A stretch of 64,000 bases of DNA from an uncultured delta proteobacterium (GCA_963842085.1 CAWJET010000002.1:1216001-1280000); one strand, 5' to 3'. Shown: positions 27,632 through 55,151, counted from the stretch's first letter. Numbers and translations: made by a program. The notes: generated by a model from the letters alone, not told the origin.

Positions 27632-28531
27632 ATGGCTCGTATCCACGCAAACGGGATTGATATCGAGTACGAAGAATTTGGCCCGAAAACCGGCACGCCG
27701 GTGCTTCTGATCATGGGACTGGGTGCGCAGCTGACGCGCTGGCCGCTGGAATTTATCGAAATTCTTACGTCGCGAGGATATCGGGTAATTCGCTACGACA
27801 ATCGCGACGTGGGGCTGTCGCAAAAGTTCGACAGCGCGGGACCGGCCGATGTCGTCAAGATGATGGCCGAGATGGCGCAGGGAAAAAAGCCAAGCGTCGC
27901 GTACACGCTGGAGGATATGGCGAACGATGCGGCGGGACTGCTCGACGCGCTTCGGATCGACAAGGCGCATATCGTGGGCGCGTCGTTGGGCGGGGCGATC
28001 GGGCAGCTCGTCGCCGCGAACCATCCAGGGAAAACGCTTTCATTCACCTCAATCATGTCCTCAAGCGGGAACAGCGTGCTTCCTCCGCCAAGGCCCGAAG
28101 CGATGGCCGTGCTCCTGAACCGTCCGCCGGCAGGTGATGTCGAGGCAACCATCGAGGCCGGGGTGAAGGCGTACAAGACGATCGGCAGCCCCGGCTATCC
28201 CACGGACGAAAGTGAAATACGCCGGCGCGTGGCCGAAGACTTCAAGCGATCGAATTATCCCGCGGGCTTTTCCCGGCAGGCGGCCGCCGCGCTGGCAAAC
28301 GGCGATCGGCGCGCGGCGCTCAAACGGATCGAAGCGCCCACGGTCGTCATTCACGGCGCGGACGATCCGCTCGTGCCGATTGAGGGCGGCCGCGATACGG
28401 CGGCGAATATCGCGGGCGCAGAGCTGATCGAAATTCCAGGCATGGGGCATGACCTCCCGGCCGCGCTCTATTCCAGAGTCGTTGACGCAATCGAATCAGT
28501 GGCGAAGCGCGCGCGCGTCGGTACGTCGTAG
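27632..28531 (+). CDS. alpha/beta-fold hydrolase (parent of the dispersed repeats)
   Basis: LIMGLG, YDNRDVG, nucleophile GASLG, HGADDPLVP, GMGHD; GGGAG RBS. Confidence 0.93.
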   Translation: MARIHANGIDIEYEEFGPKTGTPVLLIMGLGAQLTRWPLEFIEILTSRGYRVIRYDNRDVGLSQKFDSAGPADVVKMMAEMAQGKKPSVAYTLEDMANDAAGLLDALRIDKAHIVGASLGGAIGQLVAANHPGKTLSFTSIMSSSGNSVLPPPRPEAMAVLLNRPPAGDVEATIEAGVKAYKTIGSPGYPTDESEIRRRVAEDFKRSNYPAGFSRQAAAALANGDRRAALKRIEAPTVVIHGADDPLVPIEGGRDTAANIAGAELIEIPGMGHDLPAALYSRVVDAIESVAKRARVGTS

Positions 28532-28643
28532 GGGGAGGCGAAGTGGCTGCGGCAACCCAGCTGGCATTGGGCTTCCACTTTCTACGCCAATCCGCAAAAC
28601 CATCGGCAAACGGTCCGCGGCTATCTTCAGCCTGCCTACGCGG

Positions 28644-29043
28644 CTACTTCGTCCAGTTTTCGATCCGCAAGTCTGGGATGTGCGTGAAGTCGCGCTCATT
28701 ATTCGTCACTAGCGTCGCCTGTTGCACGAGCGCAATGTGCAGCGATCCAGAGATCATGATCCGCGATCATTTCACCGCGCCTTGCGAGATCGGCTTTGAT
28801 AGCACCGAACCGCTCGGCAATCGCCGGAGTGAAAGGCAGGAGTTTCACCCTTGCAAAGAATCGGCGGTAGCGGCGCAGATTCTTCTCGACCTGCGCGGAG
28901 CGGAAAATGCCGAAGTAGAGCTCGCCAAGCGTGATCAGCGAAATATAACGGCTTGAGGCACGAGTCGCCTAAAGCCGCGTGACGACCGCCGGCATCGCCC
29001 TCATGTAGTAGATGATCGTGTCCGTATCCAGGAGCCAATTCAC
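28644..29043 (-). pseudogene. vapC: VapC/PIN toxin, inactivated
   Basis: MNWLLDTDTIIYY..VTRL*..ISLITLGELYFG..DHDLWIAAH(frameshift)LVTNNERDF..IENW. Confidence 0.8.
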
Positions 29044-29297
29044 GGCGCGTCGAGCTCAGGTGCGTCACTTTTGTTGCGTCGGTTTGCGTGAATCGCACGG
29101 ATCATGTCGTCGGCCTCGATGGGTGAAAGCGTCTCGCGAATATCGATCCACGGGTCGTTCTGGCACGGCGCCTTTCTCGCACTCGCTCTGGTCACGGTGA
29201 TACTGACTTCCTCATCAGGTACAAGATGGAAGCGGCGGCGGAGCCCAGGACTTAATTCCTTTGCTCTGACATTCCGTACCGTAACGCGGTTGCGCAC
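29040..29297 (-). CDS. probable antitoxin upstream of vapC
   Basis: 85 aa; GTGA overlap with the PIN gene. Confidence 0.65.
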   Translation of the reverse strand: MRNRVTVRNVRAKELSPGLRRRFHLVPDEEVSITVTRASARKAPCQNDPWIDIRETLSPIEADDMIRAIHANRRNKSDAPELDAP

Positions 29298-29395
29298 AAA
29301 TTGGCTCCTTCTAAAACGATGCTGGTGACTAGCATGCAGGGAACCGCGACCGCGCCCAAGTTAAATCGGTACGCCGAACGGTTCAGGCGCGGGAC

Positions 29396-29827
29396 TCGAG
29401 GCCAGGGTGAAGGCGTACAAGACGATCGGGAGCCCCGGCTATCCTACGGACGAAAGGGAAATACGCCGGCGGGTGACCGAGGATTTCAAGCGATCGAATT
29501 ATCCGGCGGGCTTTTCCCGGCAGGCGGCCGCCGCGCTGGCAAATGGCGATCGGCGCGCGGCGCTCAAACGGATCAAGGCGCCCACGGTCGTCATTCGGCG
29601 CGGACGATCCGCTCGTGCCGATTGAGGGCGGCCGCGATACGGCGGCGAATATCGCGGGAGCGGAGCTCATAGAAATTCCAGGCATGGGGCATGACCTCCC
29701 GGCCGCGCTCTATTCCAGGGTCGTTGACGCAATCGAATCAGTGGCGAAGCGCGCGCGCGTCGGTACGTCGTAGGCGATGTCGAAGTGGCTGCGCCAACCA
29801 AGCTGGCGTCGGGCTTCCAGTTTCTAC
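29396..29827 (+). repeat. 3' copy of the alpha/beta-hydrolase gene plus downstream flank
   Basis: Matches ~28152-28585 with substitutions and a 2-nt deletion; stop at 29771-29773. Confidence 0.92.
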
Positions 29828-29830
29828 AAC

Positions 29831-29873
29831 AATTCCCGGGCATGGGGCATGACCTGCCAGCAGCGCTCTATTC
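29831..29873 (+). repeat. short internal copy of the hydrolase 3' region
   Basis: AATTCCCGGGCATGGGGCATGACCTGCCAGCAGCGCTCTATTC versus ~28432-28473. Confidence 0.85.
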
Positions 29874-29874
29874 G

Positions 29875-29928
29875 GCACTGTCCTAAAACGCGACCGATTG
29901 TCCTAAGTGCCGACTGCGAGTGTCCTAA
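29875..29928 (+). repeat. triple TGTCCTAA phased repeat, copy 1
   Basis: TGTCCTAA at 29879, 29899 and 29921; whole ~55-bp block recurs at 34763. Confidence 0.8.
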
Positions 29929-30600
29929 TTGACGGTGGATAGACGTTCGCGCGGCAATCTGGTAGTGGCGGAAATTTGCTGACCGGGGTTTGGCCCCCCC
30001 TTCCCCCGGTCGGTGTTCGGGCTGGCGACTGAATTGGGACACCCCTCCCGCTTTCGCTGGCCCGTTCTTTTCAGGCGAGCGCGGCGGCGTGGCGGGACTT
30101 CATTCTTTGACTTTGTGGACTTTGTGGACTGTGCGTAAAAACACACGGCCCCCCAGTTCGCGCTCATCGCGCGTCCATTCTCCGCTCGCTGGCAATTCTT
30201 CGATCAGCGATGCGATCACTGGATTTATCTCGCCCGATCAAGCTGCTCCGCTGGTCGGCTGGACCCTGCCTGACGAGTTCGCGACCCTGCGCCGTCTGCT
30301 CGAGGCCCGCCTGGGTGGCGACCACCTCAGCCCGGGCCTACCTGAGCCTGCTGGCGGGAGGGGCAGCGTCATGAGCGATACACCGCAGGTGCTGCTGGCT
30401 CATCACCTCAAGGCGCTGAGGCTTCCGACCTTCCTGCGTGAGTACGACAAGCTGGCGCGCCAGTGCGCCGCCGAAGGCGTCGACCACTCCCGCTACCTGC
30501 TGCGTCTGGCCGAGCTGGAGATGATCGACCGGGAACGGCGGACTGGAGTTGACCCGGTTTCGTGGAGTGTGTTGGGGAAGAGAGTGAGGGAGGAAAGACG

Positions 30601-30915
30601 ATGGCCAAGACACATCCACCATACCCGGCTGAGTATCGGCGGCGGATAGTCGAACTGGCGCGCGCAGGCCGGCCGCTGACGGAATTGGCGCGAGAGTTTG
30701 AGCCGACGTTAGAGTCGATTCGGCAGTGGGTGAGACAGGCAGAGCTGGATGAAGGAGTGAGAAACGATGGCCTGACCACAAGTGAGCGCGAGGAATTGAG
30801 CCGACTGCGGCGCGAGAACCGGATTTTGCGCGAAGAGCGTGAGATCCTATCAAAAGCCGCGGCCTGGTTCGCCACGGAGACCGGCTCAGTGCCGTCACGG
30901 CGTTCCAATTCGTGA
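30601..30915 (+). CDS. IS3 OrfA (HTH)
   Basis: YPAEYRRRIVEL..IRQWV..ELSRLRRENRILREEREIL; AAAAG possible -1 slip site. Confidence 0.9.
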   Translation: MAKTHPPYPAEYRRRIVELARAGRPLTELAREFEPTLESIRQWVRQAELDEGVRNDGLTTSEREELSRLRRENRILREEREILSKAAAWFATETGSVPSRRSNS

Positions 30916-31892
30916 GCGCGAATCAGGCCATGTACGCAATCGCCACGATGTGCCGGGTGCTGGAGGTCTCCACCAGCGGCTACTGGGCGTGGCTAAGACG
31001 ACCGCGGTCGGCGTGGGCTCGGGCCGACGCGCAATTGACGGCGCGCATTCGCGCGATTCATGAACGGTCGCGCACCAGCTATGGCGCTCCGCGCATTCAT
31101 GCCGAGCTGTTAGCCGACGGCATCGCGGTCGGACGTAAGCGGGTGGCGCGGCTGATGCGCGCGGCGGGACTTCACGGAGTCAGCCGGCGCAAGTGGATCA
31201 CCACCACGGTTCGCGATCGCGCCGCGCGACCGGCGCCGGATCTGGTCGAGCGTAACTTCACCGCGGCGGCGCCCAATCAGCTGTGGGTCGCCGATATCAC
31301 CTATGTTCCAACCTGGGCCGGCTTTCTGTACCTGGCGGTTGTCCTCGACGCGTTTAGCCGCCGCGTGATTGGGTGGGCGATGGAGAATCATCTGCGCACC
31401 GAGCTGGTGTTGGCAGCGCTCAATATGGCGCTCGGGCAGCGCCGGCCGACCACGGTAATCCATCATTCCGACCAGGGCACCCAATACACCTCGATCGCGT
31501 TCGGCATGCGTTGCCGTGAGGCAGGAGTGCGTGCCTCGATGGGTTCGGTAGGCGACTGTTTCGACAACGCGATGTGCGAAAGCTTTTTCGCCACCCTGGA
31601 ATGCGAGCTGCTCGACCGCCACCGTTTCAAAACCCAGGTCGAGGCGAGGATGGCGATCTTCGACTTCATCGAGGGCTGGTACAATCCGCACCGCCGCCAC
31701 TCCGCCCTCGGCTATCGTTCGCCGCTCGAGTACGAACAAATCTATCGGGCCGAACCGAATCAAAGCATGCGGAGCTCGACCGCTCTGCGCACCGCTTGGC
31801 CGCCGAACAACGCGGCGGCCGGCGCGCTGCACGGCGCCGCGCTCTCGGATCAAGATTCCATAACGCTTTCCGGCCCCAGCCCCAATCGGTGA
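30912..31892 (+). CDS. IS3 OrfB (DDE transposase)
   Basis: WVADITY, HSDQGTQY, DNAMCESFF, YNPHRRHS. Confidence 0.93.
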   Translation: MSANQAMYAIATMCRVLEVSTSGYWAWLRRPRSAWARADAQLTARIRAIHERSRTSYGAPRIHAELLADGIAVGRKRVARLMRAAGLHGVSRRKWITTTVRDRAARPAPDLVERNFTAAAPNQLWVADITYVPTWAGFLYLAVVLDAFSRRVIGWAMENHLRTELVLAALNMALGQRRPTTVIHHSDQGTQYTSIAFGMRCREAGVRASMGSVGDCFDNAMCESFFATLECELLDRHRFKTQVEARMAIFDFIEGWYNPHRRHSALGYRSPLEYEQIYRAEPNQSMRSSTALRTAWPPNNAAAGALHGAALSDQDSITLSGPSPNR

Positions 31893-32760
31893 GGGCTGGG
31901 GCCGAAAAGCTGGTACCAGATGAACATCAAAACGGAACTCTCGACGAGACAAAACCAATGAACTAAAACCAAGCCCTAAACCGTCCACCGAAACGGGGCA
32001 GCTCCAGACCGTCGAGCGCCGGATAAAGGAAGCCAGGTTTCCCGCGGTCAAGAGTCTCGACAGCTTCGACTTCACCGCCATCCCATCGCTCAACAAGACT
32101 CTGGTGCTGGAGCTGGCTCGCTCGGAGTACGTCGCCCGCCGCGAGAACGTCATCGCGCTTGGTAACAGCGGCACCGGCAAGACTCACATCGCGCTGGGGC
32201 TCGGACTGGCCGCTTGCCAGAAGGGCCTCGCGGTCGGCTTCACCACCGCAGCGGCGCTGGTCAATGAACTGCACGAAGCGAGGGACGAAAAGCGCCTGCA
32301 GCGTCTGCAACGCCAGCTCGCCGGCTTAAAGCTGCTGATCGTCGACTACGTGCCGCTCTCGGCGACCGGCGCCGAGCTGCTGTTCGAGGTCTTCAGCCAA
32401 CGCTACGAGCGCGGCTCGATCATCGTCACCAGCAACTTGCCCTTCGATGAGTGGACCGGGGTGTTCGGCTCCGAGCGACTGACCGGCGCGCTGCTCGATC
32501 GCCTTACTCATCATGTCCATATCCTCGAGATGAACGGCGACAGCTTCAGGCTCAAACACGGCAGGCGTCAGATCGCTGACGATCCTCAACCGACCGAAGC
32601 CGGATAAGACCCCTCCGAGATCGTCGCTCGAACCCGGGAGTTCCTCGAACGGGGGGAAAATCCCCCTCGCACTCCTCCTGCCGGAACTCAAGCCAAGCCC
32701 GGCCAGACTGATGCATTTTTGCTCCGGCCTGTTGATGTACTTTTACTCCGGCGTTGACAC

Positions 32761-33480
32761 TCATTGGAGCAGCGCGCCGCGTACGCTCCGAAGACGCCCG
32801 TTGTAAGCCGTTCGCGGCGCCTCAAGCCGTGAAACTGGCGGCAAACGCGTCGTTTTCGAATTATCGCCGTTGATGTCGGTTTTAACTTGCGGCAGAGCCT
32901 GTCTTGCCCTGGACTGCCATTTGTTCAGCAAAAGGTACTGCTTTCCTCGGCGAATCAGAAGGTCATTTTCGGCCATTTCTGCGAGAAGGCGGCTGACCAT
33001 CGGCCTCGAGCAGCCGATCATTTCTGCAAGGTCTTCATGCGCAAGTTCCGGAATCAGGATGGTGCCACGCGCGTCTTTGACGCCCGCACGCTCGGCAAGC
33101 TCGCTCAGCACGACTTCCAGGCGTTCTTCGAAGAGAAGATTCAACAGCATCGCAAACCAGCGCAGATTTTGTGACCAGTAAGCATTTAGCGCCCGGAGCG
33201 CTTCGACCATGGCGTTCGCATCGAGGCTCCGCAGAATGCGCGCTATGTGGTCACGACTGACAAGCGCCACCACACATTTGCTCGAGCTTTGCGCTTCGAA
33301 CAGGCGCGCATGGCGACCCTTTGAATCAACATAATCGTCGAATCCAATCAAATCGCCCGGTCCCGCCAGGCGGATCAACGTACGGCTGCCATCGCCAACC
33401 GCACAATAGATCTTGAGATCTTGACGTAACCGGCAAGGACACACGCCAAGAGATCGTCTTTGGAACCTTCCCTACATCTC
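32761..33480 (-). pseudogene. Crp/Fnr-family regulator frameshifted near the 5' end
   Basis: GPGDLIG..HEDLAEMIGCSRPMVSRLL; tandem GATCTTGA duplication at 33409-33424 breaks DLLACVLAGYVKIYC; 5' limit approximate. Confidence 0.75.
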
Positions 33481-33580
33481 CCATCCACGAATTTTTCTTG
33501 TTCCGCCGATTTTTCGATCGGCCCTTAATCCATCTTTTTTTCCCGAAAGAGAGGTCTGGGCGAATAATTCATTGTCAACT

Positions 33581-33617
33581 CGATTCCTGTGGATAATTCG
33601 CCGATTCCTGTGGATAG
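33581..33617. repeat. direct repeat containing DnaA-box-like sequences
   Basis: CGATTCCTGTGGATA twice, 21 nt apart; TGTGGATAA (33588-33596) is a perfect DnaA box. Confidence 0.55.
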
Positions 33618-33885
33618 CTCCTCGTCGTAGGGAAAATTAACAATTAGGAGTAATTGAAATCTATTAAAGTAACCTAAAAGTCCATGGTGTTGTTTAAGCG
33701 ACGTCAAAATACTGCAAATGTGGACGCTAAGGCAAGTACATCACCAAAGGTGAACCGTGCATCCTAGCAATTCAAACGCTGACTGCTGCTAACCATGACA
33801 TACCACCAAAACGCACGAAGGCGCCCTTACGGACCCGATCCGAGTGGTATTGGCAAAACTTCGAAAGGTCCGCCCCGTAGCGTCG

Positions 33886-34041
33886 TACGGCGGCGAATAT
33901 CGCGGGCGCGGAGCTGATCGAAATTCCTGGCATGGGGCATGACCTGCCGGCCGCGCTCTATTCCAGGATCGTTGACGCGATCGAATCAGTGGCGAAGCGC
34001 GCGCGTGTCGGTGCGTCGTAGGCGATGCCGAAGCGGGTGCG
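33886..34041 (+). repeat. 3' copy of the alpha/beta-hydrolase gene
   Basis: Matches ~28396-28550; stop at 34019-34021. Confidence 0.92.
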
Positions 34042-34157
34042 GAATACTTCCAGTGTACGGATCTCGCACGAATACTGTCACCGGCAACTCCCTTGACCTC
34101 AGTTGATCCTTTTACCGAGGATCGTTGGGGCGGTAAACGGTTACCAGATTCGAAGAG

Positions 34158-34505
34158 TTAACGCGACACGGCAGCCGTGTCGCCCGAATTTCCTGGGGTC
34201 GAGTGCTGGGCGCAGGACCAGCCTGTCACCTGCGAGGCTTTGTCGGGTGTTAGGTTAGGGTCGTCGTAAACAAGGTCTATCAGCCCCCAGAGCAAAACCT
34301 TGAGGTCGTCATCGAGTCCGTCGTTGTGCCGGACGATTTCCATTTCGCGCAAACGCGGAATGCCCTCGTCGCGCGCCTCTGCCGCCTGCCTGGCTACCTG
34401 ACTTAACAGCCCGCAAAAGGCGGGATCAACAGCGCAGGCTGGAGTTGTGGCGGCCAGCACGCAGAGCGCGGCAATGGCTATAGCCTTAAACCTTCGCGCG
34501 CTCAT
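34158..34505 (-). CDS. hypothetical exported protein
   Basis: Signal-like MSARRFKAIAIAALCVLAATTPACA; two Cys in the mature part. Confidence 0.6.
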   Translation of the reverse strand: MSARRFKAIAIAALCVLAATTPACAVDPAFCGLLSQVARQAAEARDEGIPRLREMEIVRHNDGLDDDLKVLLWGLIDLVYDDPNLTPDKASQVTGWSCAQHSTPGNSGDTAAVSR

Positions 34506-34742
34506 GATAATTTCCAATTCGTTAGCGCTCCGAAGTGTCCTCACATTTTGGCAGCGCGTCGCTTCCGATTATAGACGGGCGCGCGGCTGGAAGGCGCATG
34601 GCGAGCTCAGCACAAAGCTTGAGACCGACCCGGACTGGCGCACGCTTGTCGCGTAGGTAACCTCGAGTGACAAGCCCTCTGCGGATCTGGTTTCATCGGC
34701 GGTCTACGCCGAGATCCCGCTCGGCTGAACGAATACCGCCGG

Positions 34743-34817
34743 AGGACAGTGCCCACGGGAAAGCACTGTCCTAAAAGGGCAACTGAGTGTCATAAGTGCC
34801 GGGCGCGAGTGTCCTAA
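34743..34817 (+). repeat. 10-bp inverted repeat plus triple TGTCCTAA block, copy 2
   Basis: AGGACAGTGC-N10-GCACTGTCCT; TGTC(C/A)TAA at 34767, 34788 and 34810. Confidence 0.8.
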
Positions 34818-34908
34818 GGTTGATCGATATACGCAGGTGGGAGCAAATTTGCTACAAGGTGGCGCTGGCCGGGTTTGCCGCCTTTCCGTCCGCGCCGGGC
34901 TGGCGTCC

Positions 34909-35139
34909 TTATGTGCGTCGGAAGTTTTTTTTCCCTTGTTCCTCGGCCATCCACTTTTCGATTGCACCTCTCGCGAACCGGTACAAGGAGCCGACCCTGA
35001 AACCGGGAATTTGACCATCGCGAGCCAGCTTTTCGAGTGTCCTCTGATGAATGCCGAAATACTGAGCTACTTCGGTAGCCGTCATGATCTGGCCGAGGCC
35101 AGCAACGCGACGGGGCTTCATTTCCGGTCTTTCTGTCAA
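34909..35139 (-). CDS. excisionase-like HTH_17 DNA-binding protein
   Basis: IMTATEVAQYFGI...LARDGQIPGFRVG..YRF. Confidence 0.85.
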   Translation of the reverse strand: MTERPEMKPRRVAGLGQIMTATEVAQYFGIHQRTLEKLARDGQIPGFRVGSLYRFARGAIEKWMAEEQGKKNFRRT

Positions 35140-35902
35140 CGTTTGCTGCCGCTCTGACCTATTATAGTGCTTGGATTATAGTGGTTGGACGACGCAATTC
35201 ATCTCATCTATTGGAGTCAGTTATGGCGTATATCGGCCAAGAGTTAAAACCCGGTGATGTTGTGGAAACTGCAGAAATCTACGAAGTCGAGCACCGATCG
35301 AAAGCACGAACAGAAGGCTTGATTGACAAAGGAATTCGAGGCGGCCGAGATGATCGAACCGCCGCACCGCGGGACTGGAGCCGAGGATCACAGGAGAGCT
35401 AAAGTCGTTTTTCGGACGAATTCTACTTGGCCGCATCTGCGGGACGCGACGTGCCGAAACGCTGAAGAGGGGCTCCTAGCTTGCCCCCAAACTGCCCGTC
35501 TTGCCCCGACGAAGTTCCCCGGTGCCACGTCTCGCGATCCTTTTGGCTGCAGCGCTCATGGCACGCATGTTCGGCAACGCCGACCACACAAGCACGACCA
35601 CAGTGAGTGTGACGAGATTTGCGAGTATCAGGGCGGTGATCCCCACGGTTACCCCATTGTCGTCGGATTTGAGTTCATTCTACATTTAGTAGAGTAACGC
35701 TACACACCATCCAAGTCCAGCGGTGAGAGGCCCATGGGCTTCAAATGACGCGTGCGGAAGTGGACATGCGGCGTGGTCCGGGACGAAGATCGGCTTGTCG
35801 GCACCGAATCAAAACTAATCCGGGGCGCGCTGACTCGCCACTCAATGAAGCGTGAAAGCCAGTTTCGGTTTCACTCACTCTTTTTCCGGCGGGGTCAGCC
35901 GA

Positions 35903-36292
35903 TCAACTCGCTGAGCGTTCGACGAATTCCAGGCGATTGCCCCAGGGGTCGCGCACGAAGAACCGCTCCTGGCCGGGAAATCGGTTGCCCGCGATTGTTT
36001 CGACGCCGGCTGTTTCGAGGCGATTGCGAAGCGCTTCAAGATTGGGGACGCGAAAGGCCGGGTGACGGCGCGACGCCTTGTTGACCACCGACGCGTCTTT
36101 CTCTGTGGTCAAGTGGAGCTGCTGCACACCACATCGGTACCATGCGCCGGGGCTGCCGCTGTCGGTGTTGGCGGGACGCTCGAGCGGCTCGAGGCCAAGC
36201 AGCTCCTGGTAGAATGCGCGCGCCTTCGAGAGCGCGTCGGCGCTGGTATCGATCAGAAGATTTACGTGATCGAGTCCGATAATCAGGTCCAT
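35903..36292 (-). CDS. VOC/glyoxalase family protein
   Basis: LDHVNL..ARAFY..LGL, QLHL, HPAF, RDPWGNRLEF. Confidence 0.88.
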   Translation of the reverse strand: MDLIIGLDHVNLLIDTSADALSKARAFYQELLGLEPLERPANTDSGSPGAWYRCGVQQLHLTTEKDASVVNKASRRHPAFRVPNLEALRNRLETAGVETIAGNRFPGQERFFVRDPWGNRLEFVERSAS

Positions 36293-36400
36293 CGGCATCC
36301 TCTTCGCATTCACCCGGTCGAGTAGAGTTTTTTCCAGCGAGCGTTCCGAGTCAATCGCCTTAAGCGTTCGCGACCAGCGTGGTATATCGTTGCGACATCC

Positions 36401-38386
36401 GTGAATTTTCGGTGGCTTCAAAAGCTCGCGACCGCTGCCTCGGTAATTGCCGCGATTTACCTGCTCTCGATCCTCGTGACGGGCGGCTATGCGGTGAATT
36501 TCGCAGGCGCCAGGTTCGACGCCAACAAGCTATGGCCCGCGATCGTCGCGACACTCGGATTCGCGCTGCTGCACACGGTCTTTCGAAACGGCTCGATCGA
36601 AGGCGCGTGTAAATCAAGCCCGGGATTCATAATTTTCTCGGTTGCGCTGATCGTATTTCTGGCCAACGGCCGTACGATTTCCGGCGGCGATTCGGTGCCC
36701 GCGAAAAACCTGCCGCTCAGCATCCTTGGCCACGGACACTTCTACCTCGATCAACTGGTAACCCCCGGCGAGAAAAAGATCCCCTACTATCTGCGTGAGA
36801 GTGGCGGGCATTACGTGTCCGACTATCCGGTCGGCGCCGCGCTGATAGCGTTGCCATTCTATGCGCCCTCGATCGTATGCGGCGTCAGCCCGAGCAGCCG
36901 GATTTTCTCCGAGCTCGAGAAAGTTTCGGCGGCGACGATCGTGGCGCTCTCGGTCCTGCTGCTCTACATGGCCGCCGCGCGCGTGACCGCCGACTGGATG
37001 GCGATGTTGCTGACGTTGGTCTATGCGTTTGGGACCACCAGCCTCAGCGTGAGCAGCCAGGCGTTATGGCAGCACGGACCGGCCCAACTCGCGCTCACCG
37101 CGGCGATCTATTGCCTGGTGCGCGCCCGCGACGAGTCGCGCTGGGCGGGATACGCTGGGCTGCCGCTCGCATTCGAGGTGATCACGCGTCCAGCCGACGT
37201 ATTAATCGCTGCGCCGCTCGGCTTGTATGTGCTCGTAAGCTATCGGCGCGAGATTTGGACATTCGCCGCAACCGCAATTGCCCCCGTTCTTTTTCAAGTG
37301 TGGTACAACGCCACTTACTTCGGCACGCCGTTTCGAAGCCAATTTTTCACACAGGCGGCTTCGGTGGGTGGCCAGCGCGTGCCGTCCGCCGGATTCTGGG
37401 CGACTCCCCTCGCGCGCGGACTGGCCGTGGTTGTACTGAGTCCCGGTCGCGGACTGCTCTTCTACTCTCCGATCTTCATTCTCTCGTTCGCGGGATTGGC
37501 GCTCGCGTGGCGCAAGAATGGCGAGGTTCTTCTGCGCTACTTGGGTATCTGCGCGATTCTGAGCATATTGCTCGTCGCGAAATGGCATAAGTCCTCCGGC
37601 GGCGAGTCTTTCGGCCCGCGCCTGCTCGCGGATGTCACGCCGATAATGGCGTTTGCCCTGATCCCCCTCGCAGACTGCCTCCGCAATCGCCGCGCGCTCG
37701 TGGTCGTGTTCGCTGTGCTGGGCGTATGGTCGATCGCCGCCAACGCGTCCGGCGCGTTCATCAGCTATCGAGCATGGAACAACTGGACCCTCGGCGATCC
37801 GGACACTCGGTTGTGGCTGTGGGGCGACAATCCGGTCGTCGATCCGATGCGTTCGACCTTCGACTCGATGAGAATCGCGCTGGAACATCGCGCGACGAGC
37901 CGCAACTCTCCAGACACGCTCGACGCCCTGCTGGTCACGCTGAGCGCGCCTCCGCCCGAGGCCGCGCCGGGAGCGCGCGTCCATGTCTCGATCCGTGCGA
38001 CCAACACCGGCAAAGCGGTGTGGCTCACCGGACATTCACCGGATGAACGTGGGGTGGTCAGTTTGGGATGGGAGTGGAAGCGCGACGGTAAAGAGATCGC
38101 TGACAGTGAAGTCCGGCGCGAGCTTCACCTGAATGTCTTTCCCGGCGATTCGATGGAGCTTGAAGCGTCCGCGATCACGCCTGATGCGCCGGGGCGTTAT
38201 GAACTGGAAATTTCGCTCGCGGTCCAAACCGCGGGACAGATCGCGCGACCGATAGGAACGCCGCTAGCGGTCGCGGTAACAGTGGCGCCATCAATCAACT
38301 CGACGCGATTCTACTTTCCCGGGTTCGTATCGAAATGCACCCAAAAATCGGTGCCCCGAACCGCTCCGACGGCGTTGGGTGTGTGA
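36401..38386 (+). CDS. polytopic membrane protein, GT-C glycosyltransferase-like, with C-terminal Ig-like domain
   Basis: Many TM segments, SQALWQHG, PGRGLLFYSP, FGPR; tail ATNTGKAVW..PGDS..PDAPGRYEL. Confidence 0.7.
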   Translation: MNFRWLQKLATAASVIAAIYLLSILVTGGYAVNFAGARFDANKLWPAIVATLGFALLHTVFRNGSIEGACKSSPGFIIFSVALIVFLANGRTISGGDSVPAKNLPLSILGHGHFYLDQLVTPGEKKIPYYLRESGGHYVSDYPVGAALIALPFYAPSIVCGVSPSSRIFSELEKVSAATIVALSVLLLYMAAARVTADWMAMLLTLVYAFGTTSLSVSSQALWQHGPAQLALTAAIYCLVRARDESRWAGYAGLPLAFEVITRPADVLIAAPLGLYVLVSYRREIWTFAATAIAPVLFQVWYNATYFGTPFRSQFFTQAASVGGQRVPSAGFWATPLARGLAVVVLSPGRGLLFYSPIFILSFAGLALAWRKNGEVLLRYLGICAILSILLVAKWHKSSGGESFGPRLLADVTPIMAFALIPLADCLRNRRALVVVFAVLGVWSIAANASGAFISYRAWNNWTLGDPDTRLWLWGDNPVVDPMRSTFDSMRIALEHRATSRNSPDTLDALLVTLSAPPPEAAPGARVHVSIRATNTGKAVWLTGHSPDERGVVSLGWEWKRDGKEIADSEVRRELHLNVFPGDSMELEASAITPDAPGRYELEISLAVQTAGQIARPIGTPLAVAVTVAPSINSTRFYFPGFVSKCTQKSVPRTAPTALGV

Positions 38387-39135: not shown

Positions 39136-39350
39136 GGGACGGGTTGGGCGGCTCCGGCGGTTTTCTCGCCTCAATGCTCCTGCTCAGCGTCGGTACAACT
39201 CGTGTGTGTGGCGAATTGCCGATTCTGGGAAAATCAGTAATTCGCCACACACGGCACGAATTTCGATGTTTAGCGTGCGCCAGCACGTTTTTGCGTGTAG
39301 AATATTGCTGCTTGGTGTAGGCTCTGCTATTTCAAAAGAGGGAGACGACT

Positions 39351-43860: not shown

Positions 43861-44230
43861 TGTCTGGTTTCGGTTTCGAGGTTGCGGTCCGAGCGGCCAG
43901 GATTGCTACGGCGAGTTACCCCTTCGCGCCAATTAAGGTGGGGATCAGCCAGTTTCGCCAAGGGTTCAAACCGCTTGGAATGTTCCGGCATCTCTGAAGC
44001 TACACCGTATCGCTTGGCTTCTATGTCAAACAGTATCATCCTGTTTTCACCAGTCAGGATCCGGCGGTTGTCGAGACTCATTGCCGGCTAAGGCTTCGAG
44101 TTCGGCAATGGTCTGCGAGCAGAAGATGCCGATTAGATGACCGACGCCTGGCGCTAGCTTGGGCGACACTTCTGCTCCTGATCACTCCGCCAATTCAATG
44201 TCATCTTTACACGGCGCCGGCTGATTTCAG

Positions 44231-44992: not shown

Positions 44993-45000
44993 GTTTGAAG

Positions 45001-45462: not shown

Positions 45463-45534
45463 CTTCTTCGGTCCTCCTATTAGTTGCTTATGCCTGCAGG
45501 CGCCATCGGCGGTAACCTGCCTTCCATCCATTAG

Positions 45535-46606: not shown

Positions 46607-47109
46607 TCGTCGGCGCTGATGTTCGCGCCCTTTCTCTTCTTGGCTGTCTTCCCTGAGATAGTCACAGGCGCGCCCGCATATCAGTGCACATCCCTACTAC
46701 AAGGAAAATTTTCATTTCACGGCTATCGAATTGAAGCGATGGGGAAACGGGCTGCGACCTAAACCAAAACCGACCAATTCCTGATCGAGGTCAGAATTTA
46801 ACCGCGCGATCTTCGCTTCACTGGGGCCGCGCTCGATCGAGCGCGGAAATCGCTGCAACTTTGCGCGGTGGTCGAGGTATTGTCAGACGGGATTTATTGG
46901 AGCTCCTTCGCTTGGCCCGAAGCTCTCTCTGTGGCGGTTTAGATAGCCTATCGTCGAGACGCAGGGGCATTGCCGACGCCATGCCGATCGAGAATTTTCA
47001 GCGCTCCGGGAATATCTGCCGGCGGCCCGCTCGCCGAAATACCCCTCGCTGCGCAGCGCGGCAAGCGGCAAGTTTCTCGGCGACCGCGACGTTGTGAATT
47101 GATTGAGGG

Positions 47110-47754
47110 TCATATCTTCCGCGTCGGCAACAGCGCGTCAGCACCGACGTTTGGAGACCGGGGGGCGAAATTACTTTCTAATGGCTCAGCCTGTCGTTTC
47201 GCTCGCTTCATGACCGTCGCTTCATGACCGCCAGTCTCGCATTTTCGGATTTTCCGGATGGTAAAAAGAATTTGAAATTTCCGGACGCAGAGGTAGGGTA
47301 GGAAAAGCTCAACATTTATAAGGAAGATTTCCCTAATTTGGGCCGACAGGGCTTTCTTTCCGGACCTGTTGAAAATGAGCCCTTCGACTTGCCTGAACTC
47401 GCGAAAGTTCGAGGTAACCAGGATCAGGTCGTGGGCAAGAGCGGTCCCCGCGATCAAAATATCGTACGCTCCCATTGGCCGTCCCCGGCGCTTCAGGATG
47501 GCACGTGCCTTGGCCGTGGCCTCGGTCGCTCCGTCGTCATAAAGCAGCACGCGGATTGTCCCGAGAAAGGCGTCCATAACCGGTCCGAGTCGGCGGGCGA
47601 GCTTGGAATTCAGCAACAGCCCGTACTCGATCTCCATCTGAGTGATTGCGCTGGCCGCCAGATCCTCTGGCGCGGCCGCCTTGATGCGCTCAAGGGTCTG
47701 GCGCTGGCCCTGAGCGAAATCGCTCAGTACGCAGGTATCAAGTAGAAATCGCAT
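47110..47754 (-). pseudogene. vapC: VapC/PIN toxin with native stop lost (reads through into unrelated DNA)
   Basis: MRFLLDTC..EIEYG..GAYDILIAGTAL..LVTSNFREF.QVEGL, then ~85 aa of non-PIN tail; activity unknown. Confidence 0.75.
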
Positions 47755-47783
47755 TGAACGGTTCGAGGAGGATCGCAAGAACC

Positions 47784-47981
47784 TCAAGCAGCCGCGCCAG
47801 ATCTGATTCCCCGGATTCCTTGAAAATGCATGACCTCTGTCGGCCACTTGGCGGGTCGGCGGCGGTTTAGCCACTCGCCGACCGCTTCACGAATCAGGGC
47901 GTTGCGCGTCCTGCCGCTCTCTCTGGCGGTCTGGTTGAGGCGCTCGACCAGCTCATCGTTGAGGTGAACGCTGAAATTCAT
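47784..47981 (-). CDS. ribbon-helix-helix (CopG) antitoxin
   Basis: MNFSVHLNDELVERL..ARESGRTRNALIREAV; directly upstream of the PIN gene. Confidence 0.82.
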   Translation of the reverse strand: MNFSVHLNDELVERLNQTARESGRTRNALIREAVGEWLNRRRPAKWPTEVMHFQGIRGIRSGAAA

Positions 47982-48167
47982 GGCTGGAATGATAATAGGT
48001 TAGGTTCGCAAAGAGAGTCCTTTTACCGCCCCAGCCCCTTCCGGTTAGCGCCTCGATCATGCTGCTCACTCGTCCCGTCATTCATGGCGGTCAATTTTCT
48101 TCTTCCCGTCTGTCTTGCGAGCGAGGCGACGCAGGCAGAAACTCACGCGGCGCCGAGGACTCACTCC

Positions 48168-50369: not shown

Positions 50370-50734
50370 CTGACAATCTTCCAGACTGGTGATGTTAGTC
50401 CTATGAGCGCGCCGGTTTCGACCAACTGCGCATGATAGCTGCCTCAATCTGTCCTGCGTGCTCGCGGCAGCAATGCGCGGGGGGACGGCTCCGCGGTCTT
50501 TCTCTCGAACTCCCAGGGTACCACTGGCACTCGTGACGTTCGCTCGCTCCGGCGCCGTCTTCACGATACGACATTTTCATCGCGGCTTGGGTGGGCCGAC
50601 GGACCATGTCCAGTTTCCCTCTCGGTAAATCACATCGCGCCGCCCGGCCCCGCCTTAACACTCTCAACCGCGAAAGGCACGAACCCCAGTGTAGACCAAA
50701 ATTCCAAAATTCTGGTCTATTATAGAATGCAGTG

Positions 50735-51065
50735 ATGGCAGCTTGGACGGTCGAGCTGAAGGAATCGGTCATCGATGACCTGCGAGCGCTCGGAATCAAA
50801 CAGGGCCGCGCTGTGCTGAGAGAGGCCAGCGCCCGGTTGGCGGAAAACCCGCTGGTTCAGACGCGGCATCTCAAAACACTACGACCGAATCCGGTGGCGG
50901 AACGTGAGTTTGAGGCTTTTTGGTCGTTACCGGGTATTGTTTACAGTCGCAGAGGCTGAAGCGACAGTCACTATCGTCCTGGTCGGGAAGAAACGGGGAA
51001 ACTCGCTGTACGTGCAGGACAAGAGGATTATCGCCCATGAAAGTAGTTCCACTGAGCGAGGCTAA
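50735..51065 (+). pseudogene. RelE/ParE toxin, frameshifted
   Basis: WTVELKESVIDDL..LKTLRPNPVAERE / LRLFGRYRVLF..VTIVLVG in two frames (shift near 50908). Confidence 0.78.
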
Positions 51066-51318
51066 GGCCAAACTGAGCCGCTACGGTCGGCTATGCTACG
51101 GCGAGCCGGTCGTGGTGACAGTCAACGGCAGACCGTCGTTTCAACTGGTGCCGTTAGAAGAAGGTGACGATCTGATCGACCGCCTGATCGAACAGCATCC
51201 GGGCTTCCGCAAGCTCCTCGAGCGCCGATTGCGCGAGCGCAGCGTGTCGGTGGCTGTGGCGCAGCGGCGGCTCGCGAGAGGTGGGCCGGTTAGAACACCG
51301 CGGGCTCGCCATCGCTAA
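51037..51318 (+). CDS. Phd/YefM antitoxin
   Basis: MKVVPLSEAKAKLS..EPVVVTVNGRP..LVP. Confidence 0.85.
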   Translation: MKVVPLSEAKAKLSRYGRLCYGEPVVVTVNGRPSFQLVPLEEGDDLIDRLIEQHPGFRKLLERRLRERSVSVAVAQRRLARGGPVRTPRARHR

Positions 51319-51389
51319 AGTGGCCATTCTGAGGGAACGCTCCCTCAACAACCGATGCCTGGGAAGCAACGAAACGTCTGGCGCCTGCT

Positions 51390-51486: not shown

Positions 51487-51805
51487 TTACTTGTCCCCGG
51501 TAGAAGTGCGGATCGGCCGCTGGTACGGCACGAGATCGAGGCCGGGAATGTCCTCGAAGTCACGCCGATTCCTGGTCAGAAAACGGTGAGAATGCTGCAA
51601 CGCTTGGCTGGCAAGCCAAAGATCTTGAACACGGTATCGGTGCTGTCTGCCAGCGGCGCTGATTTGGGCCGCCAGGCTGCCGATTATGTCGCCGGTTACC
51701 CCATCCACTGCGATGAGCGGTTTGCGTCGAATCCGATGCAGGGCGGCGAGACGCCGCTGGCGGATTCGCGGTTCTTGCGCGACCTCAGCTCCGAACCTGA
51801 GTTCG
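51487..51805 (-). pseudogene. PIN toxin, 5'-truncated
   Basis: RFGAE..QDLWLASQALQH..LTRNRRDFEDIPGL; N-terminal DT motif missing. Confidence 0.75.
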
Positions 51806-51819
51806 GCGGTCGAGAAGCA

Positions 51820-51893
51820 TCAAGGAACCGCACGACCGGCAAGGGAGAGCAACATGGCTCGTATCAACGCAAACGGGATTGATATCGAGTACG
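51820..51893 (+). repeat. 5' copy of the alpha/beta-hydrolase gene (RBS plus first 13 codons)
   Basis: GCAAGGGAGAGC.ACATGGCTCGTATC.ACGCAAACGGGATTGATATCGAGTACG matches ~27617-27671. Confidence 0.9.
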
Positions 51894-52221
51894 TCACTGC
51901 CGGCACCGGTCACGGGGGGGAAGCAGGCCTTTCATACCAACATTCCCTCCTCCATTGGTCGGGCAGATTCCGATGTGCTCTCTGCCCGGCCTTGACAGCG
52001 GCGGAGCAATTCAATGCCGGCGTGCGGAGCGTCAGCGTTCCAATTCAGAGATGCGGCGGTTTTCAACGGAGAGGCGCGAAGGGTCGTGATGGCTGCCGTG
52101 TGTACAGCCCGGCCGTCGCCCTTGGCGTTTCTCTGCACTCACGAACATGTGTGCTGATATGGCGGTAGCCGAGGTCACCGAAGGCGGAAACCAATCATGC
52201 CCACACTAACGGTTGCGGCGG

Positions 52222-52644
52222 TCAGCGCCTTTGCAACGAGTAGCTCTTTGGGGCGTGCACTCTAAGGTAGTCGCGCAGCGATTCAACACCCTGGCCGCGG
52301 GTCGTGGGTTGCCAGCGGCCTGCGGACTTTTCTTCGGCCCACCATTGGTTGGCAGCAAGCCTGATGTAGACGGTGCTACTGTTCCCGACCCTGGCGCTGC
52401 CGCGACTCCCAAAATGACTCAAAGGCAGGTTGAATTCGTCAAACAGTTCCTGCCAGTAACTCCAGTTCAGACGAAAGGCGGTCGTTGGTGCGCCGTCAGG
52501 AACGTCCTCGGGCTTGATCGCGTAGCGCTCTGTCAGCGCCTTCTGCAAGCGGTGCGCAGCCTCTTTCTCTGCCGCCAAGGCTCCTTTATCGGTGGAGATC
52601 CTACGCAACAGCACGATCTTTCGCAGCACGTCTTCGACCTTCAT
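52222..52644 (-). CDS. hypothetical protein with DUF2786-like N-terminal helical hairpin
   Basis: VLRKIVLLRRIS..GA..AEKEAAHRL..LTERY; AGGGGG RBS. Confidence 0.65.
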   Translation of the reverse strand: MKVEDVLRKIVLLRRISTDKGALAAEKEAAHRLQKALTERYAIKPEDVPDGAPTTAFRLNWSYWQELFDEFNLPLSHFGSRGSARVGNSSTVYIRLAANQWWAEEKSAGRWQPTTRGQGVESLRDYLRVHAPKSYSLQRR

Positions 52645-52855
52645 CTACCCCCTCTAGTTTGGTGACTCAGTGATTGCGCATGAAACTAGCTGTGTCACTT
52701 GCTTATTTTCAAGAACGCTGATGACGGATATGCACAGCTGAGGCACACCGAAGATTAGTCGCGAGTTGCGCGCCGAGCTCAGCCGACCGGTCAATGGAAT
52801 TGCCATGCGAGCCTGAGTCCCGGGCGCATTCACGATTTGCGAGCGGGTTAGCGTG

Positions 52856-53638
52856 TCATGGTTTTCGCTTCGAAGTGATCTTAGGCGATAGGGACCCTGC
52901 TTTTGGCTCGAGTTCGTAAACGGAGATGTGAACCGGGCTCGCCGCGGTGAACAGGCTTCGGTCCCATCCGCCGTATCGCTCTCGGAGTCGCATTCCGGCA
53001 AGGCGCGCCATCAGGTCCAACTCGCTCGGATAGGCGAAGCGCAATTGCAACGGATACAGCTGCACTCCGCCCGCGGTGAACAGGATGTGTTGTGCGCGGA
53101 CAGTCTGGTTCACGACATCGTTGGTCACCGAATCGAGCAGCGCGTGATCGGTCCCGACATCAACCGCCGCGACTCGCTGGCGCTGGGCAAGAAGCGAGTG
53201 ATCGGGATTGAATGCTTCAACTACGAACGCGCCTGCCGGAAGAATGCGCTTCGCTACGCGCTGAAAGCATCGCACTTGCTCGTCCTGATCCGGAAGTGCG
53301 AAAAGAGTGCTGAACGCTACGTAGACAAGACCGAAGCCGCCGGTAACCTTCACATCGGCGAAGTTTCCCATTACGACCGGTATGTCCGCGCCCCCCGGTT
53401 TGGCACGCATCTTCGCGACCATCGCGGGCGACGCATCGATTCCCGTCACGCGCACGCCGCGCGCGGCCAGCGCTATCGCTATTCTGCCGGTGCCGATTCC
53501 AAGTTCGAGCGCTCGACGCTTGCCCGCGAGCGGGGCGAGAAAATCCGCGACCGTCTCCGGATTGTCGCGCTTTCCGTATAGGAGATCGTAGACTTCGGCG
53601 ATTCGCTCTCCGTATGTGGTTTCGTCGTACTCGGCCAT
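52856..53638 (-). CDS. class I SAM-dependent methyltransferase
   Basis: ALELGIGTGRI, GIDASPAM, PSELDLMARLAG. Confidence 0.9.
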   Translation of the reverse strand: MAEYDETTYGERIAEVYDLLYGKRDNPETVADFLAPLAGKRRALELGIGTGRIAIALAARGVRVTGIDASPAMVAKMRAKPGGADIPVVMGNFADVKVTGGFGLVYVAFSTLFALPDQDEQVRCFQRVAKRILPAGAFVVEAFNPDHSLLAQRQRVAAVDVGTDHALLDSVTNDVVNQTVRAQHILFTAGGVQLYPLQLRFAYPSELDLMARLAGMRLRERYGGWDRSLFTAASPVHISVYELEPKAGSLSPKITSKRKP

Positions 53639-53808
53639 GCGTGGACGAAATCAAAGCGGCGCCTTGGCGTCAAACGGAAAGATGCGTAGCCTTCGACCTA
53701 CGACGACTCCTGGGTTCTGAAAACCTCGAACCCGTCGAAAAGTCCTGGAGTCCTGTGAAAATAGCCAGACGAACCACCACCAAGGAGGATTCCACGACTG
53801 GAAACAGG

Positions 53809-55016
53809 ATGGCTGCTAGCACGACGACTCGATGGCGCGACTGGGCTCTTCTGCTAGCTGCGGCAGCTTATCTGTTTGCGCTCTACTATTTCGAGATCAG
53901 CTCTAAAGAGCGCCAGATCGACTTCGGCGCCTACTATGTGTGGGGCTTTGCAGCTCGCCACGGCCTCGATCCCTACCGCTCAAGCGTGCTGCCACCGATC
54001 ATGAATGCGCTTCAAGTCGACGCAGTTCCCGCCAATTATCCACCGCTGGTCTTGTTGGCCTTCGAGCCTCTGAGCTTGCTGCCTGTGCGGACGGCGTTCT
54101 GGATATGGTGCGGAACGAACTTTGCTCTGCTGCTTATGGGGCTCGCGATAATGATCCGCTGTGCGGGCGGACGAGGTTCTCCGGTAGCCATTCTCGCGCT
54201 GGCGCTGCTCTATGGTCCGATCAGCGATGAACTGTATTGGGGAGAGTCTGACTTGGTTGTGATGCTGCTGATCGCGCTGTCCCTGCGGGCTATCCGTCGG
54301 TCCTCCGACGCGACCTGCGGGATCTCGCTCGCGCTCGCGGCTTTGTGGAAAGGGTTTCCGGCGGCAATCCTGGTTGGATTCATCACCGATCGCCGGCCGC
54401 GTTTGCTGTTGGCGGCAGCTTTGACCCTGCTCACCGGGGCGGCAGTTTCGGTTATGATTTTCGGTCCCGGTCTGAATTTGGAGTTCGCAGACTCGGCATG
54501 GCAGACAAGTAGTTCGGCGCTGCTTTCGTATTCCATCAACGGGTCGTTCGCCGCATTGATCACCCGCGGCGTTCAGTCGGCTGCTCGCGCGTATCCGAGT
54601 GCGCCGTGGCCGGCGGTGCGTCTTGTGGCGATCCTGCAGTGGAGATTGTGTTTTTTCTATTGGCAGTGCATGGGGTCTCGATAGCGAACAGAAGCGGACG
54701 CCCTGAGTTCGCCTTCGCGCTTTGGGTCGCGTGGCTCCTGCCGCTGCTAACCGCCGTCTGGTTTCATCGTCTCACCTTCTTTCTCGTTTTTCTTCTGTTG
54801 CTCGCGCGCGCGGAAGGCACCAGCGTTCGGGCGCGACGCGCCGGACTTATCTGCTACGGTCTTGCTCAGATAGGACTCATCATTGCCTGGACCCGGTGGC
54901 TGACAGTCCCCGCCCATGACGAGCTGACCCAGAACGGGCTGGGCGCTGCAACTTTTCTTGCTATGGTGTTCGGCTTCAGCGCAGCCTACCTGATGTGTGC
55001 TGACACTCGAGGTTGA
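53809..55016 (+). pseudogene. GT87 (DUF2029) membrane glycosyltransferase, frameshifted near 54640
   Basis: DFGAYY, DPY, NYPP, LWKGFP, NGS; hydrophobic C-terminal part in another frame. Confidence 0.72.
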
Positions 55017-55040
55017 GCGCCGTCGAATCGATGGTGGTGG

Positions 55041-55151
55041 GAATCCGGGCATGGGGCATGACCTGCCGGCCGCGCTCTCTTCCAGGATCGTAGACGCGAT
55101 CGAATCAGTGGCGAAGCGCGCGCGCGTTGGTGCGTCGTAGGCGACGGCGAA
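55041..55151 (+). repeat. 3' copy of the alpha/beta-hydrolase gene
   Basis: GGGCATGGGGCATGACCTGCCGGCCGCG...GCGTCGTAG; stop at 55138-55140. Confidence 0.92.

Follow-up and report, generated by a model that had tools for sequence, protein, structure and literature searches.

Several described systems gather unrelated cargo, or repeated gene ends, at a single bacterial locus, among them integrons, tandem arrays of integrative elements at an attachment (att) site, orphan Rhs/CdiA/MafB cassettes and repeat-bounded amplification units. The locus considered here lies in a 64,000-nucleotide (nt) stretch (the window, C2:1216001-1280000) of the genome of Candidatus Binatus, which consists of 2 contigs (C1 and C2; 4.93 Mb). 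An intact alpha/beta-hydrolase gene in this window is followed by truncated copies of its own 3' end in the same orientation, with unrelated cargo between them. A preliminary description had read this layout as an integron-like array in which the gene end serves as a reusable landing pad. That interpretation is partly supported: cargo bounded by same-orientation gene ends, the missing integrase, strain-variable cargo and an origin of the pieces in diverged alleles are borne out, the integron-like array is not. The layout looks like layered genome accretion rather than a dedicated cassette machine.

In tandem integrative arrays, attL restores the target gene and attR holds a partial copy. The hydrolase locus resembles these arrays in its intact target at one end, its co-oriented partial 3' direct repeats and the position of the newest layer nearest the gene. 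It differs from them in that no integrase, let alone one per element, was found in cis or nearby, and in its variable junction distances, microhomology joins and 5' pieces. Integrons likewise hold an array of unrelated cargo at one locus, but here no intI gene stands beside the array, the cargo occupies both strands and has regulators of its own, and gene pieces of 43-440 nt serve as the punctuating repeats. Judged on this layout of cargo and boundaries, no attC model search having been made, the mostly promoterless, co-oriented, attC-bounded cassettes of an integron are not seen. Because no integrase was found, the array is assigned neither to tandem att arrays nor to integrons. Orphan Rhs/CdiA/MafB cassettes also leave repeated gene-end pieces downstream of a full-length gene; the pieces described here, however, are conserved copies of one Abhydrolase_1 C-terminus, accompanied by neither alternative toxin tips nor immunity genes, and the locus falls outside that group.

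With Campbell-type insertion and repeat-bounded amplification, the locus has in common a unit of repeat and cargo that varies in copy number and a distal repeat that sits on the original flank. Here, in contrast, a metabolic gene end takes the place of an insertion sequence (IS) as the repeat, the copies are 5-12% diverged, and no dedicated enzyme is known. The translocatable units of IS26 are an analogy to such repeat-bounded amplification units. Units composed of a gene end and intergenic sequence in tandem paralogue clusters are a related idea (PMC2568036). A further parallel is relaxed recombination by Rad52-like phage recombinases, which forms mosaics out of defective prophages (De Paepe et al. 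2014; PMC3945230), since this genome carries 4 copies of Erf with an exonuclease and a mosaic of short diverged fragments. Those events are phage-prophage exchanges in E. coli, whereas the recurrent seam here is a chromosomal gene end and is known from sequence alone.

The hydrolase gene and its truncated copies

The intact gene (27632..28531, + strand) encodes 299 amino acids (aa), matches Pfam Abhydrolase_1 (1.4e-22) and, by tblastn, is the single intact close hydrolase copy in the genome. Its window positions, and those of its surroundings, serve as reference (ref) coordinates below. A macrolide esterase identity was rejected: NF052610 (EstT-like) is the best NCBIfam match, but its 174.3 bits against a cut-off of 420 make the hydrolase a non-member.

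BLASTN of the gene region against the window recovered four 3' pieces, all on the + strand and all downstream of the intact gene. F2 (29396..29833, +) corresponds to ref 28152-28591, is 93-95% identical to the gene and is a pseudogene, as it carries a 2-nt deletion. F3 (29831..29873, +), a 43-nt piece equivalent to ref ~28428/28432-28473 (88% by BLASTN), is a different allele from F2, is closest to the homologue L008, and is joined to the flank of F2 at an AATTCC/AATCC microhomology. F4 (33886..34054, +) consists of ref 28396-28552 (BLASTN 33886-34042, 91%) and a diverged native-type flank. F5 (55044..55151, +) equals ref 28435-28542 (89%) and ends 127 nt left of the left end of a phage-like island considered below. 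Hydrolase pieces as a whole are 86-95% identical to the C-terminus region of the gene. The 16-nt motif GGCATGGGGCATGACC has 5 exact + strand matches (28439, 29681, 29839, 33929 and 55048) and a sixth with 2 mismatches at 63389; in 100 shuffles, the mean was 0.04 matches and 6 were never reached.

BLASTN and the motif count against shuffles thus confirm the gene and its same-orientation 3' pieces where the preliminary description had placed them. It was also correct that the variants TCCAGAGTC, TCCAGGGTC and TCCAGGATC distinguish the pieces and that three of them run past the stop codon, by 60 nt (F2), 21-45 nt (F4) and 11 nt (F5). The flank that the gene shares with F2 (28532..28591, +; 60 nt, here called vapBC-type) is a diverged version of the native downstream flank. 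The earlier inventory missed several further pieces. A 5' piece of a second hydrolase copy, comprising 45 nt of upstream sequence and the first 13 codons, lies at 51809..51893 (+; ref 27587-27671). Outside the window are 3' pieces at C1:2521511-2521876 and C2:1443635-1444054(-), and further 5' pieces at C1:1556880-1557095 and C1:1558713-1558954. No middle-only piece occurs among the 10 fragments in the genome, of which seven are 5'-truncated 3' pieces and three are 5' pieces. All 3' pieces have ref 28436-28473 in common and 6/7 have 28436-28542, but no crossover could be mapped.

The gene and F2 are sisters (95%), and identity to the gene over 28436-28542 drops with distance along the array (F2 95.3%, F4 89.7%, F5 88.8%), the other pieces retaining states of the outgroup L008 (GACCTG, CCAGGATC and GACGCG). 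Third codon positions account for 75 of the 109 differences between fragments and gene, and for 36 of 46 in the comparison of the intact gene with L008. Changes private to the C1 and C2 pieces, by contrast, show no preference among the codon positions (5,3,5 and 3,3,3). Third-position bias combined with even private changes implies that divergence took place while the alleles were still working genes, whether in other strains or among paralogues, and that truncation and drift came afterwards, in line with the earlier suggestion that the pieces come from diverged alleles. A class of metagenome pieces (class B, below) has the 28177-28181 breakpoint in common with the C1 and C2 pieces, but the two groups do not cluster in the tree; an ancient capture, followed by divergence together with the island (copies 84-94% identical), would fit this.

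Several features adjoin the gene and its pieces. Three direct copies of TGTCCTAA (29879-29929, spacing 20 and 23 nt) begin right at the end of F3. Just upstream of the gene, a ~68-nt element (27513-27581) recurs at 75-92% identity elsewhere in the genome and in many genomes of the same genus (for example 6 matches each in G005 and G008), and is a candidate regulatory or repeat element. Two sigma-54 activator genes (23948-27160) lie upstream of the hydrolase, and in L009 the hydrolase likewise follows a sigma-54 response regulator. A glyoxalase gene adjoins the hydrolase of L009, and the window also has one at 35903-36421.

Related strains and homologous loci

The arrangement that bears most directly on how the layers formed was found in a separate metagenome contig, L181/L182, where the order is intact gene, vapBC, fragment (ref 28152-28552), native flank and a stretch resembling window 46722-48073, 91% identical. 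The distal fragment thus stands on the native flank and the intact gene on the inserted block. The corresponding native flank of the window, followed by a PIN/RHH toxin-antitoxin pair, lies at 46722..48073 (L181 2230-3454, 91%), which means that ~18 kb (28.5-46.7 kb) separates the gene from its native flank; ~17 kb of window sequence (F3 to 46.7 kb) is absent from the L181 strain. The vapBC remnant and F2 together form a 1.24-kb repeat unit. In L195, another vapBC unit comes after the fragment, L181/L182 have a single unit, and the window has one fragment-vapBC unit and the start of the next flank. The unit therefore varies in copy number among strains, and F2, since it bears the vapBC-type flank, looks as if another unit had once followed it. 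The cargo at this gene is accordingly variable among relatives, as the preliminary description had supposed.

A 31-nt degenerate motif yielded 31 metagenome loci, comprising 7 full-length genes (on 6 contigs), 9 class B pieces, 4 class C pieces, 2 other pieces, 6 distant homologues and 3 loci with no match. Class B pieces begin at ref 28181 (n=9), class C pieces at 28251 (n=4) and the two others at 28125 and 28152. Upstream of class B, sequence like window 50644-51355 (Phd) is present in 8/9, the ninth having no upstream sequence; downstream of it, island sequence is present in 8/9. Upstream of class C, 3/4 have sequence like window 51622-51808, the stretch that precedes the 5' piece in the window. 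In L180, the order is island CI-like gene, Phd-like gene, hydrolase piece and the cro/Erf side of the island. The full-length genes L166, L170, L174 and L192 share a native downstream flank, GAAGTAGCTGCGGAACGCCTCCAGTATCGGCAG..., which is also found, in diverged form, after F4 and after the C2 piece; in L155, a genome without the hydrolase, 54-75 nt of it remain beside an island. In L192, a 75-nt stretch of native flank (46722-46795-like) forms a direct repeat (2229-2304 / 3354-3427) around ~1.05 kb. This insert resembles DNA beside the right end of the island (L154) and is another repeat-bounded insert at the hydrolase locus.

A DNA search of 30 relatives found no hydrolase fragments, the 68-nt upstream repeat alone matching widely, and 3 genomes with the gene at 82-87% DNA identity hold full-length copies only. 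Orphan pieces are also missing from 79 homologous loci in other genomes, 7 of which (Parvibaculum and kin) have 2-3 tandem full-length paralogues. In L009 and L010, the hydrolase lies among ordinary metabolic genes.

Recombinase search and soundness of the assembly

The preliminary description had seen no integrase, and the scans agree. Pfam searches found no integrase or resolvase among open reading frames (ORFs) of at least 58 aa in 28.4-57.6 kb or of at least 100 aa in 19-64 kb. Phage_integrase (PF00589) and Resolvase domains number 15 and 9 genome-wide, with none in the window or near the other fragments and the nearest at C2:1167771. When 22 recombinases of this genome served as tblastn queries, no match in the window fell below E 0.03, so that no remnant was found, and the three other fragment regions gave nothing convincing either; the strongest alignment there covers 20 aa (E 7e-6) at 8.7 kb into the C2 region. 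Scans of unassigned ORFs with NCBIfam and PHROGs returned an excisionase-family helix-turn-helix (HTH) protein, a protease and otherwise weak matches only. There is likewise no recombinase near the 79 homologous hydrolase loci of other genomes.

As the genome is a metagenome assembly, the array could be strain-chimeric or collapsed, a source of the fragments that the preliminary description had itself named, and read depth is higher over the hydrolase segments than over their neighbours, as is expected of multi-copy sequence. Seven public soil runs from 2 studies contain 73-83% of sampled words of 27400-34200, and the Logan contigs of 4 of these runs were examined; the best-matching runs may include the source sample. 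Soil-run contigs cover 28486-29535, 28503-29502, 29745-30304, 32932-33927 and 33976-35624 with 0-2 differences, and bridge the gene/vapBC/F2, F2/F3 and F4 junctions, that is, every unique inner-array junction. Bridging in 4 runs from both studies, together with the same gene-vapBC-fragment order at 91% identity in the separate contig L181/L182, argues that the chimera objection fails, and an assembly artefact is very improbable. The contigs of the 4 runs, which drop rare variants, contain no excision joint. A joint 27671->33925 in one contig was considered as an excision product and is better explained by the 51809-55151 locus.

The Erf-type island

The hydrolase pieces are linked to a multi-copy island. 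Both the C1 and the C2 piece are followed by the same ~4.7-kb module (88.6% identical over 3.7 kb between copies), which comprises a small Cro/YdaS-like repressor (-), a cro-like ORF, Erf (PF04404), YqaJ/RecE-like exonuclease (PF09588), HNH and a P-loop protein of 570-640 aa. Four full island copies are present in the genome (C1:1640783-1646228(-), C1:2515114-2526725, C2:1312079-1319261 and C2:1438673-1443201(-)), and the island exonuclease occurs in 16/47 genomes of the genus, with up to 6 matches each. The C1 hydrolase piece lies inside the island (left end C1:2515114), after a small terminase gene, GT87, BrnT/BrnA and an ArdC-N fragment. In the window, the left part of the island (55279..56532) begins with AATTGGCTTTGTTTTGTAAA, one of the left-end types, and holds a 292-aa ORF (55331-56206(-)) and a truncated CI-like repressor (56036-56506(+)) before being cut off by a 245-bp multi-copy repeat. 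A remnant of the small island repressor lies at 62750..62982 (-); on C1, this sequence comes immediately after the hydrolase piece. The distance from stop codon to island varies by case (11, ~60, ~125 and 138 nt).

Island ends are sharp, and the right end, after the P-loop gene, bears ACTGACGATC iterons and an inverted copy. Of 8000 candidates scored against the P-loop protein, at least 2793 are homologues at E <= 1e-5, none of them named or with a Pfam domain, and no PDB sequence matched the protein below E 0.3. The AlphaFold model obtained for it is weak (mean predicted local distance difference test, pLDDT, 61.9), and Foldseek on that model ranked D5-like primase-helicases best (AsfvPrimPol at E 9e-5 and TM 0.26, with poxvirus D5/E5, NrS-1 and SCCmec Cch). 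A D5-like helicase is therefore a lead from a weak model and not proof. The leftmost island gene encodes a conserved protein of 255-360 aa with no family match; an ESM Atlas search of its 292-aa representative found unnamed clusters only, some phage-derived. Three paralogues in the window (19578-20654(-), 20853-21635(-) and 55331-56206(-)) share an N-terminal QIxANRxNAxxSTGPR..GK...NAxKHGL and a C-terminal LxRLQxxRxG motif, and this ANRRN-motif family supplies the leftmost island gene.

In relatives, island copies sit between ordinary host genes. The 84 ORFs that flank 10 such copies include no integrase, and no flanking direct repeats of at least 17 nt were found at 16 island copies, except for paralogous SBBP-repeat genes in L156. 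With phage-inducible chromosomal islands (PICI), SaPI satellites and SCCmec-type elements, the island has in common a size of 5-12 kb, repressors, a possible D5-like helicase gene with iterons, small terminase in some copies and multiple copies. Unlike them, it has no integrase or detected att repeats, and it encodes Erf, a RecE-like exonuclease and HNH; a helicase with an origin, as in PICI-type satellites, is hinted at by the D5-like model match and by the ACTGACGATC iterons after the gene. Nothing on Binatia was among the top matches of a literature search for mobile elements of this class. The abundant, integrase-less, Erf-bearing island of Binatia appears to be undescribed and is a more novel lead than the hydrolase array.

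Three small repeats were noted in connection with the island. A 160-bp derivative at C2:1439164-1439322, inside an island copy, consists of both ends only (100% identical) of the IS3-family element present at 30543-32021 of the window and resembles a deletion derivative of the miniature inverted-repeat transposable element (MITE) type. The ~245-bp repeat that cuts the island in the window (56526-56759) has at least 13 copies of ~84% identity on both contigs and may represent a MITE or the end of an IS. At 39203-39252 there is a 50-nt hairpin repeat with a perfect stem, GTGTGTGGCGAATT...AATTCGCCACACAC, which has at least 11 copies in the genome and also lies beside island ends in relatives (L157).

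Cargo and neighbourhood

From ~19 kb on, the window is a mosaic of low coding density (0.12-0.42 in bins of C2:1.24-1.32 Mb, against a contig mean of 0.71), and many of its segments recur, diverged, at C2:1.28-1.56 Mb, C1:1.53-1.66 Mb and C1:2.51-2.58 Mb. As first described, the cargo between the 3' pieces is unrelated; it lies on both strands and includes pseudogenes, IS elements, regulators and toxin-antitoxin pairs. The layer next to the gene is a vapBC remnant (28592..29395, -), recognised by six-frame translation as a PIN-type VapC with an in-frame stop and a VapB-like ORF, neither of which has a Pfam match. An IS3-family element (30543..32021, +), whose copies elsewhere are 99.6-99.9% identical, lies inside an IS21-type istB remnant (~30400-32607) and is a later insertion; IS-less joints (30537/30540 to 32007/32008) are present in soil-run contigs. 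A cut of F3 by an IS21 end was considered and dropped, as there is an istB remnant only, and the multi-copy part begins near 30236-30315.

An excisionase-family HTH_17 gene (34909..35136, -; Pfam 1.5e-13, TIGR01764 6.1e-14, PHROG excisionase families) lies ~870 nt beyond F4. Other cargo comprises a Crp-like gene, glyoxalase, protease, a MazE-like gene, PIN/RHH, a RecD2-like helicase and Phd, and between the 5' piece and F5 there is a methyltransferase (-) with a GT87 glycosyltransferase (+) (52856..54684). No transfer RNA (tRNA) or transfer-messenger RNA genes were found in the window, and no Rfam family reached its gathering score in 19-64 kb. A 1.3-kb internal duplication encoding coiled-coil proteins (40713-42014 / 44175-45482, 85% identity) has diverged copies at C1:1659-1661 kb. 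Beyond the island part lies an adenylate-cyclase/AAA/TPR gene family (57740-61151), of which orphan 3' ends, and few 5' ends, occur at 61842-61952, 25390-25439 and a total of at least 12 loci genome-wide; all these 3' ends stop at the stop codon after a conserved tail.

Origin of the array

The favoured explanation, to which about an even chance is given, is homology-anchored accretion, that is, Campbell-type and unequal recombination at the gene end, accompanied by illegitimate joins and decay. The hydrolase gene marks the inner edge of a flexible region of low coding density, and its last 100-440 bp with a short flank would be the shared homology at which DNA of related strains was joined. 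The incoming DNA would have comprised toxin-antitoxin blocks and blocks carrying, or derived from, the integrase-less Erf/exonuclease/HNH/helicase island. A single crossover of a circle bearing a 5'-truncated hydrolase end (Campbell-type) would leave the intact gene proximal and the truncated copy distal on the older flank, and unequal crossing-over between hydrolase copies would have the same outcome. Repeated events would stack layers, the newest adjoining the gene, and microhomology joins such as F2|F3, IS insertions and deletions would later have eroded the array. Some hydrolase ends would have been taken up by the island and be carried within it today, accounting for the pieces at other loci. 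The fragments, their layering, the differences among strains, the lack of an integrase and the connection with the island are observed; homologous recombination is the presumed maker of the joins, with the genome's four Erf/exonuclease pairs as plausible helpers. Erf/Exo pairs match lambda Red in recombining substrates of 78% identity, and a divergence of 12% lowers recombination of this type only ~100-fold (PMC3945230). Accretion is supported by the topology of L181/L182, which is that expected from duplication of an anchor. The variable copy number of the vapBC unit, the fall in identity with distance from the gene, the third-position bias and the lack of a recombinase also speak for it. The link to the island is drawn from the C1 and C2 pieces that precede its module, the closeness of F5 to its left end, and the class B and C pieces beside the island or beside 50644-51808-like sequence.

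Several observations weigh against accretion at a homologous anchor. No crossover point or hybrid allele has been demonstrated, the F2|F3 join is a microhomology join outside the gene, and 5' pieces with variable ends exist. The 5' piece at 51809-51893 and F5 look like a single copy with a replaced middle, for which no anchor mechanism is needed. The 16 island loci without flanking repeats indicate that the island does not generally duplicate its target, and the first layer (vapBC) contains no island genes. The array is old, being shared with the L181 strain at 91% identity and made up of pseudogene fragments, and no current activity is evident; contigs of the four soil runs, in which rare variants are dropped, lack an excision joint. 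Finally, the 12 or more orphan 3' ends of the cyclase-TPR family suggest that gene-end debris is general in this genome.

A rival explanation is passive debris, in which several full-length copies, either island cargo or tandem paralogues, were broken by unrelated deletions and insertions without any anchoring. The three 5' pieces with variable ends, the orphan cyclase-TPR ends, the 2-3 tandem paralogues at 7/79 homologous loci and the pieces inside the island in L180 and on C1 agree with such a history. So does the 3.15-kb methyltransferase-GT87 block, which 51809-51893 and F5 flank in register, and classes B (8/9, 50644-51355-like) and C (3/4, 51622-51808-like) share the upstream sequence of this second locus and can be read as its deletion derivatives. 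Debris does not, however, predict the L181 arrangement, with its distal fragment on the native flank and its intact gene on the inserted block, or the difference in repeat-unit copy number in L195; also against it are the lack of a middle-only piece among 10 fragments and the shared orientation of the four 3' pieces that lie beyond the intact gene in the window. It is possible but doubtful. Site-specific integration, with the last ~110 nt of the gene as attB, elements bearing a surrogate gene end in attP, a recombinase acting in trans or an unrecognised island enzyme, and an array like those at tRNA genes, is unlikely. The segment common to all or nearly all 3' pieces would suit it, as would the discrete breakpoints that recur in independent metagenomes (28181 at 9 loci, 28251 at 4), the excisionase-family gene after F4 and the conserved leftmost island protein; partial duplication of target genes by integrating elements is well known (PMC9897764). 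Against these stand the lack of any tyrosine or serine recombinase, intact or degraded, in the window, near the fragments, in the flanks of 10 relatives' island copies or near the 79 hydrolase loci, as well as a stop-to-island distance that differs each time and islands elsewhere that have no flanking repeats.

A dedicated, integron-like cassette system, as first proposed, does not fit cargo in both orientations, pseudogenes and IS elements among it, the F2|F3 join or the 5' pieces. It also sits poorly with pieces that ride in or beside the island elsewhere, with the same kind of debris in the cyclase-TPR family and with 79 homologous loci free of fragments. A bolder form of the accretion model, in which a self-replicating, integrase-less island carries captured host-gene ends as a portable homology 'att', its DNA is circularised after transfer, and a single crossover in the host gene, driven by its own Erf/exonuclease pair, rebuilds the gene while leaving a truncated copy, seems distinctly unlikely.

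Implications

If that bolder form were true, the island would be a natural integration system of the recombineering type, stacking cargo at a metabolic gene. Irrespective of it, repeated gene ends in such genomes need not imply an integron-like machine. Should homologous recombination rather than an integrase have made the seams, the locus would record the layer-wise build-up of a flexible region in a soil bacterium without site-specific recombinases, and would tie this build-up to an Erf-bearing island that is very common in the uncultured class Binatia.

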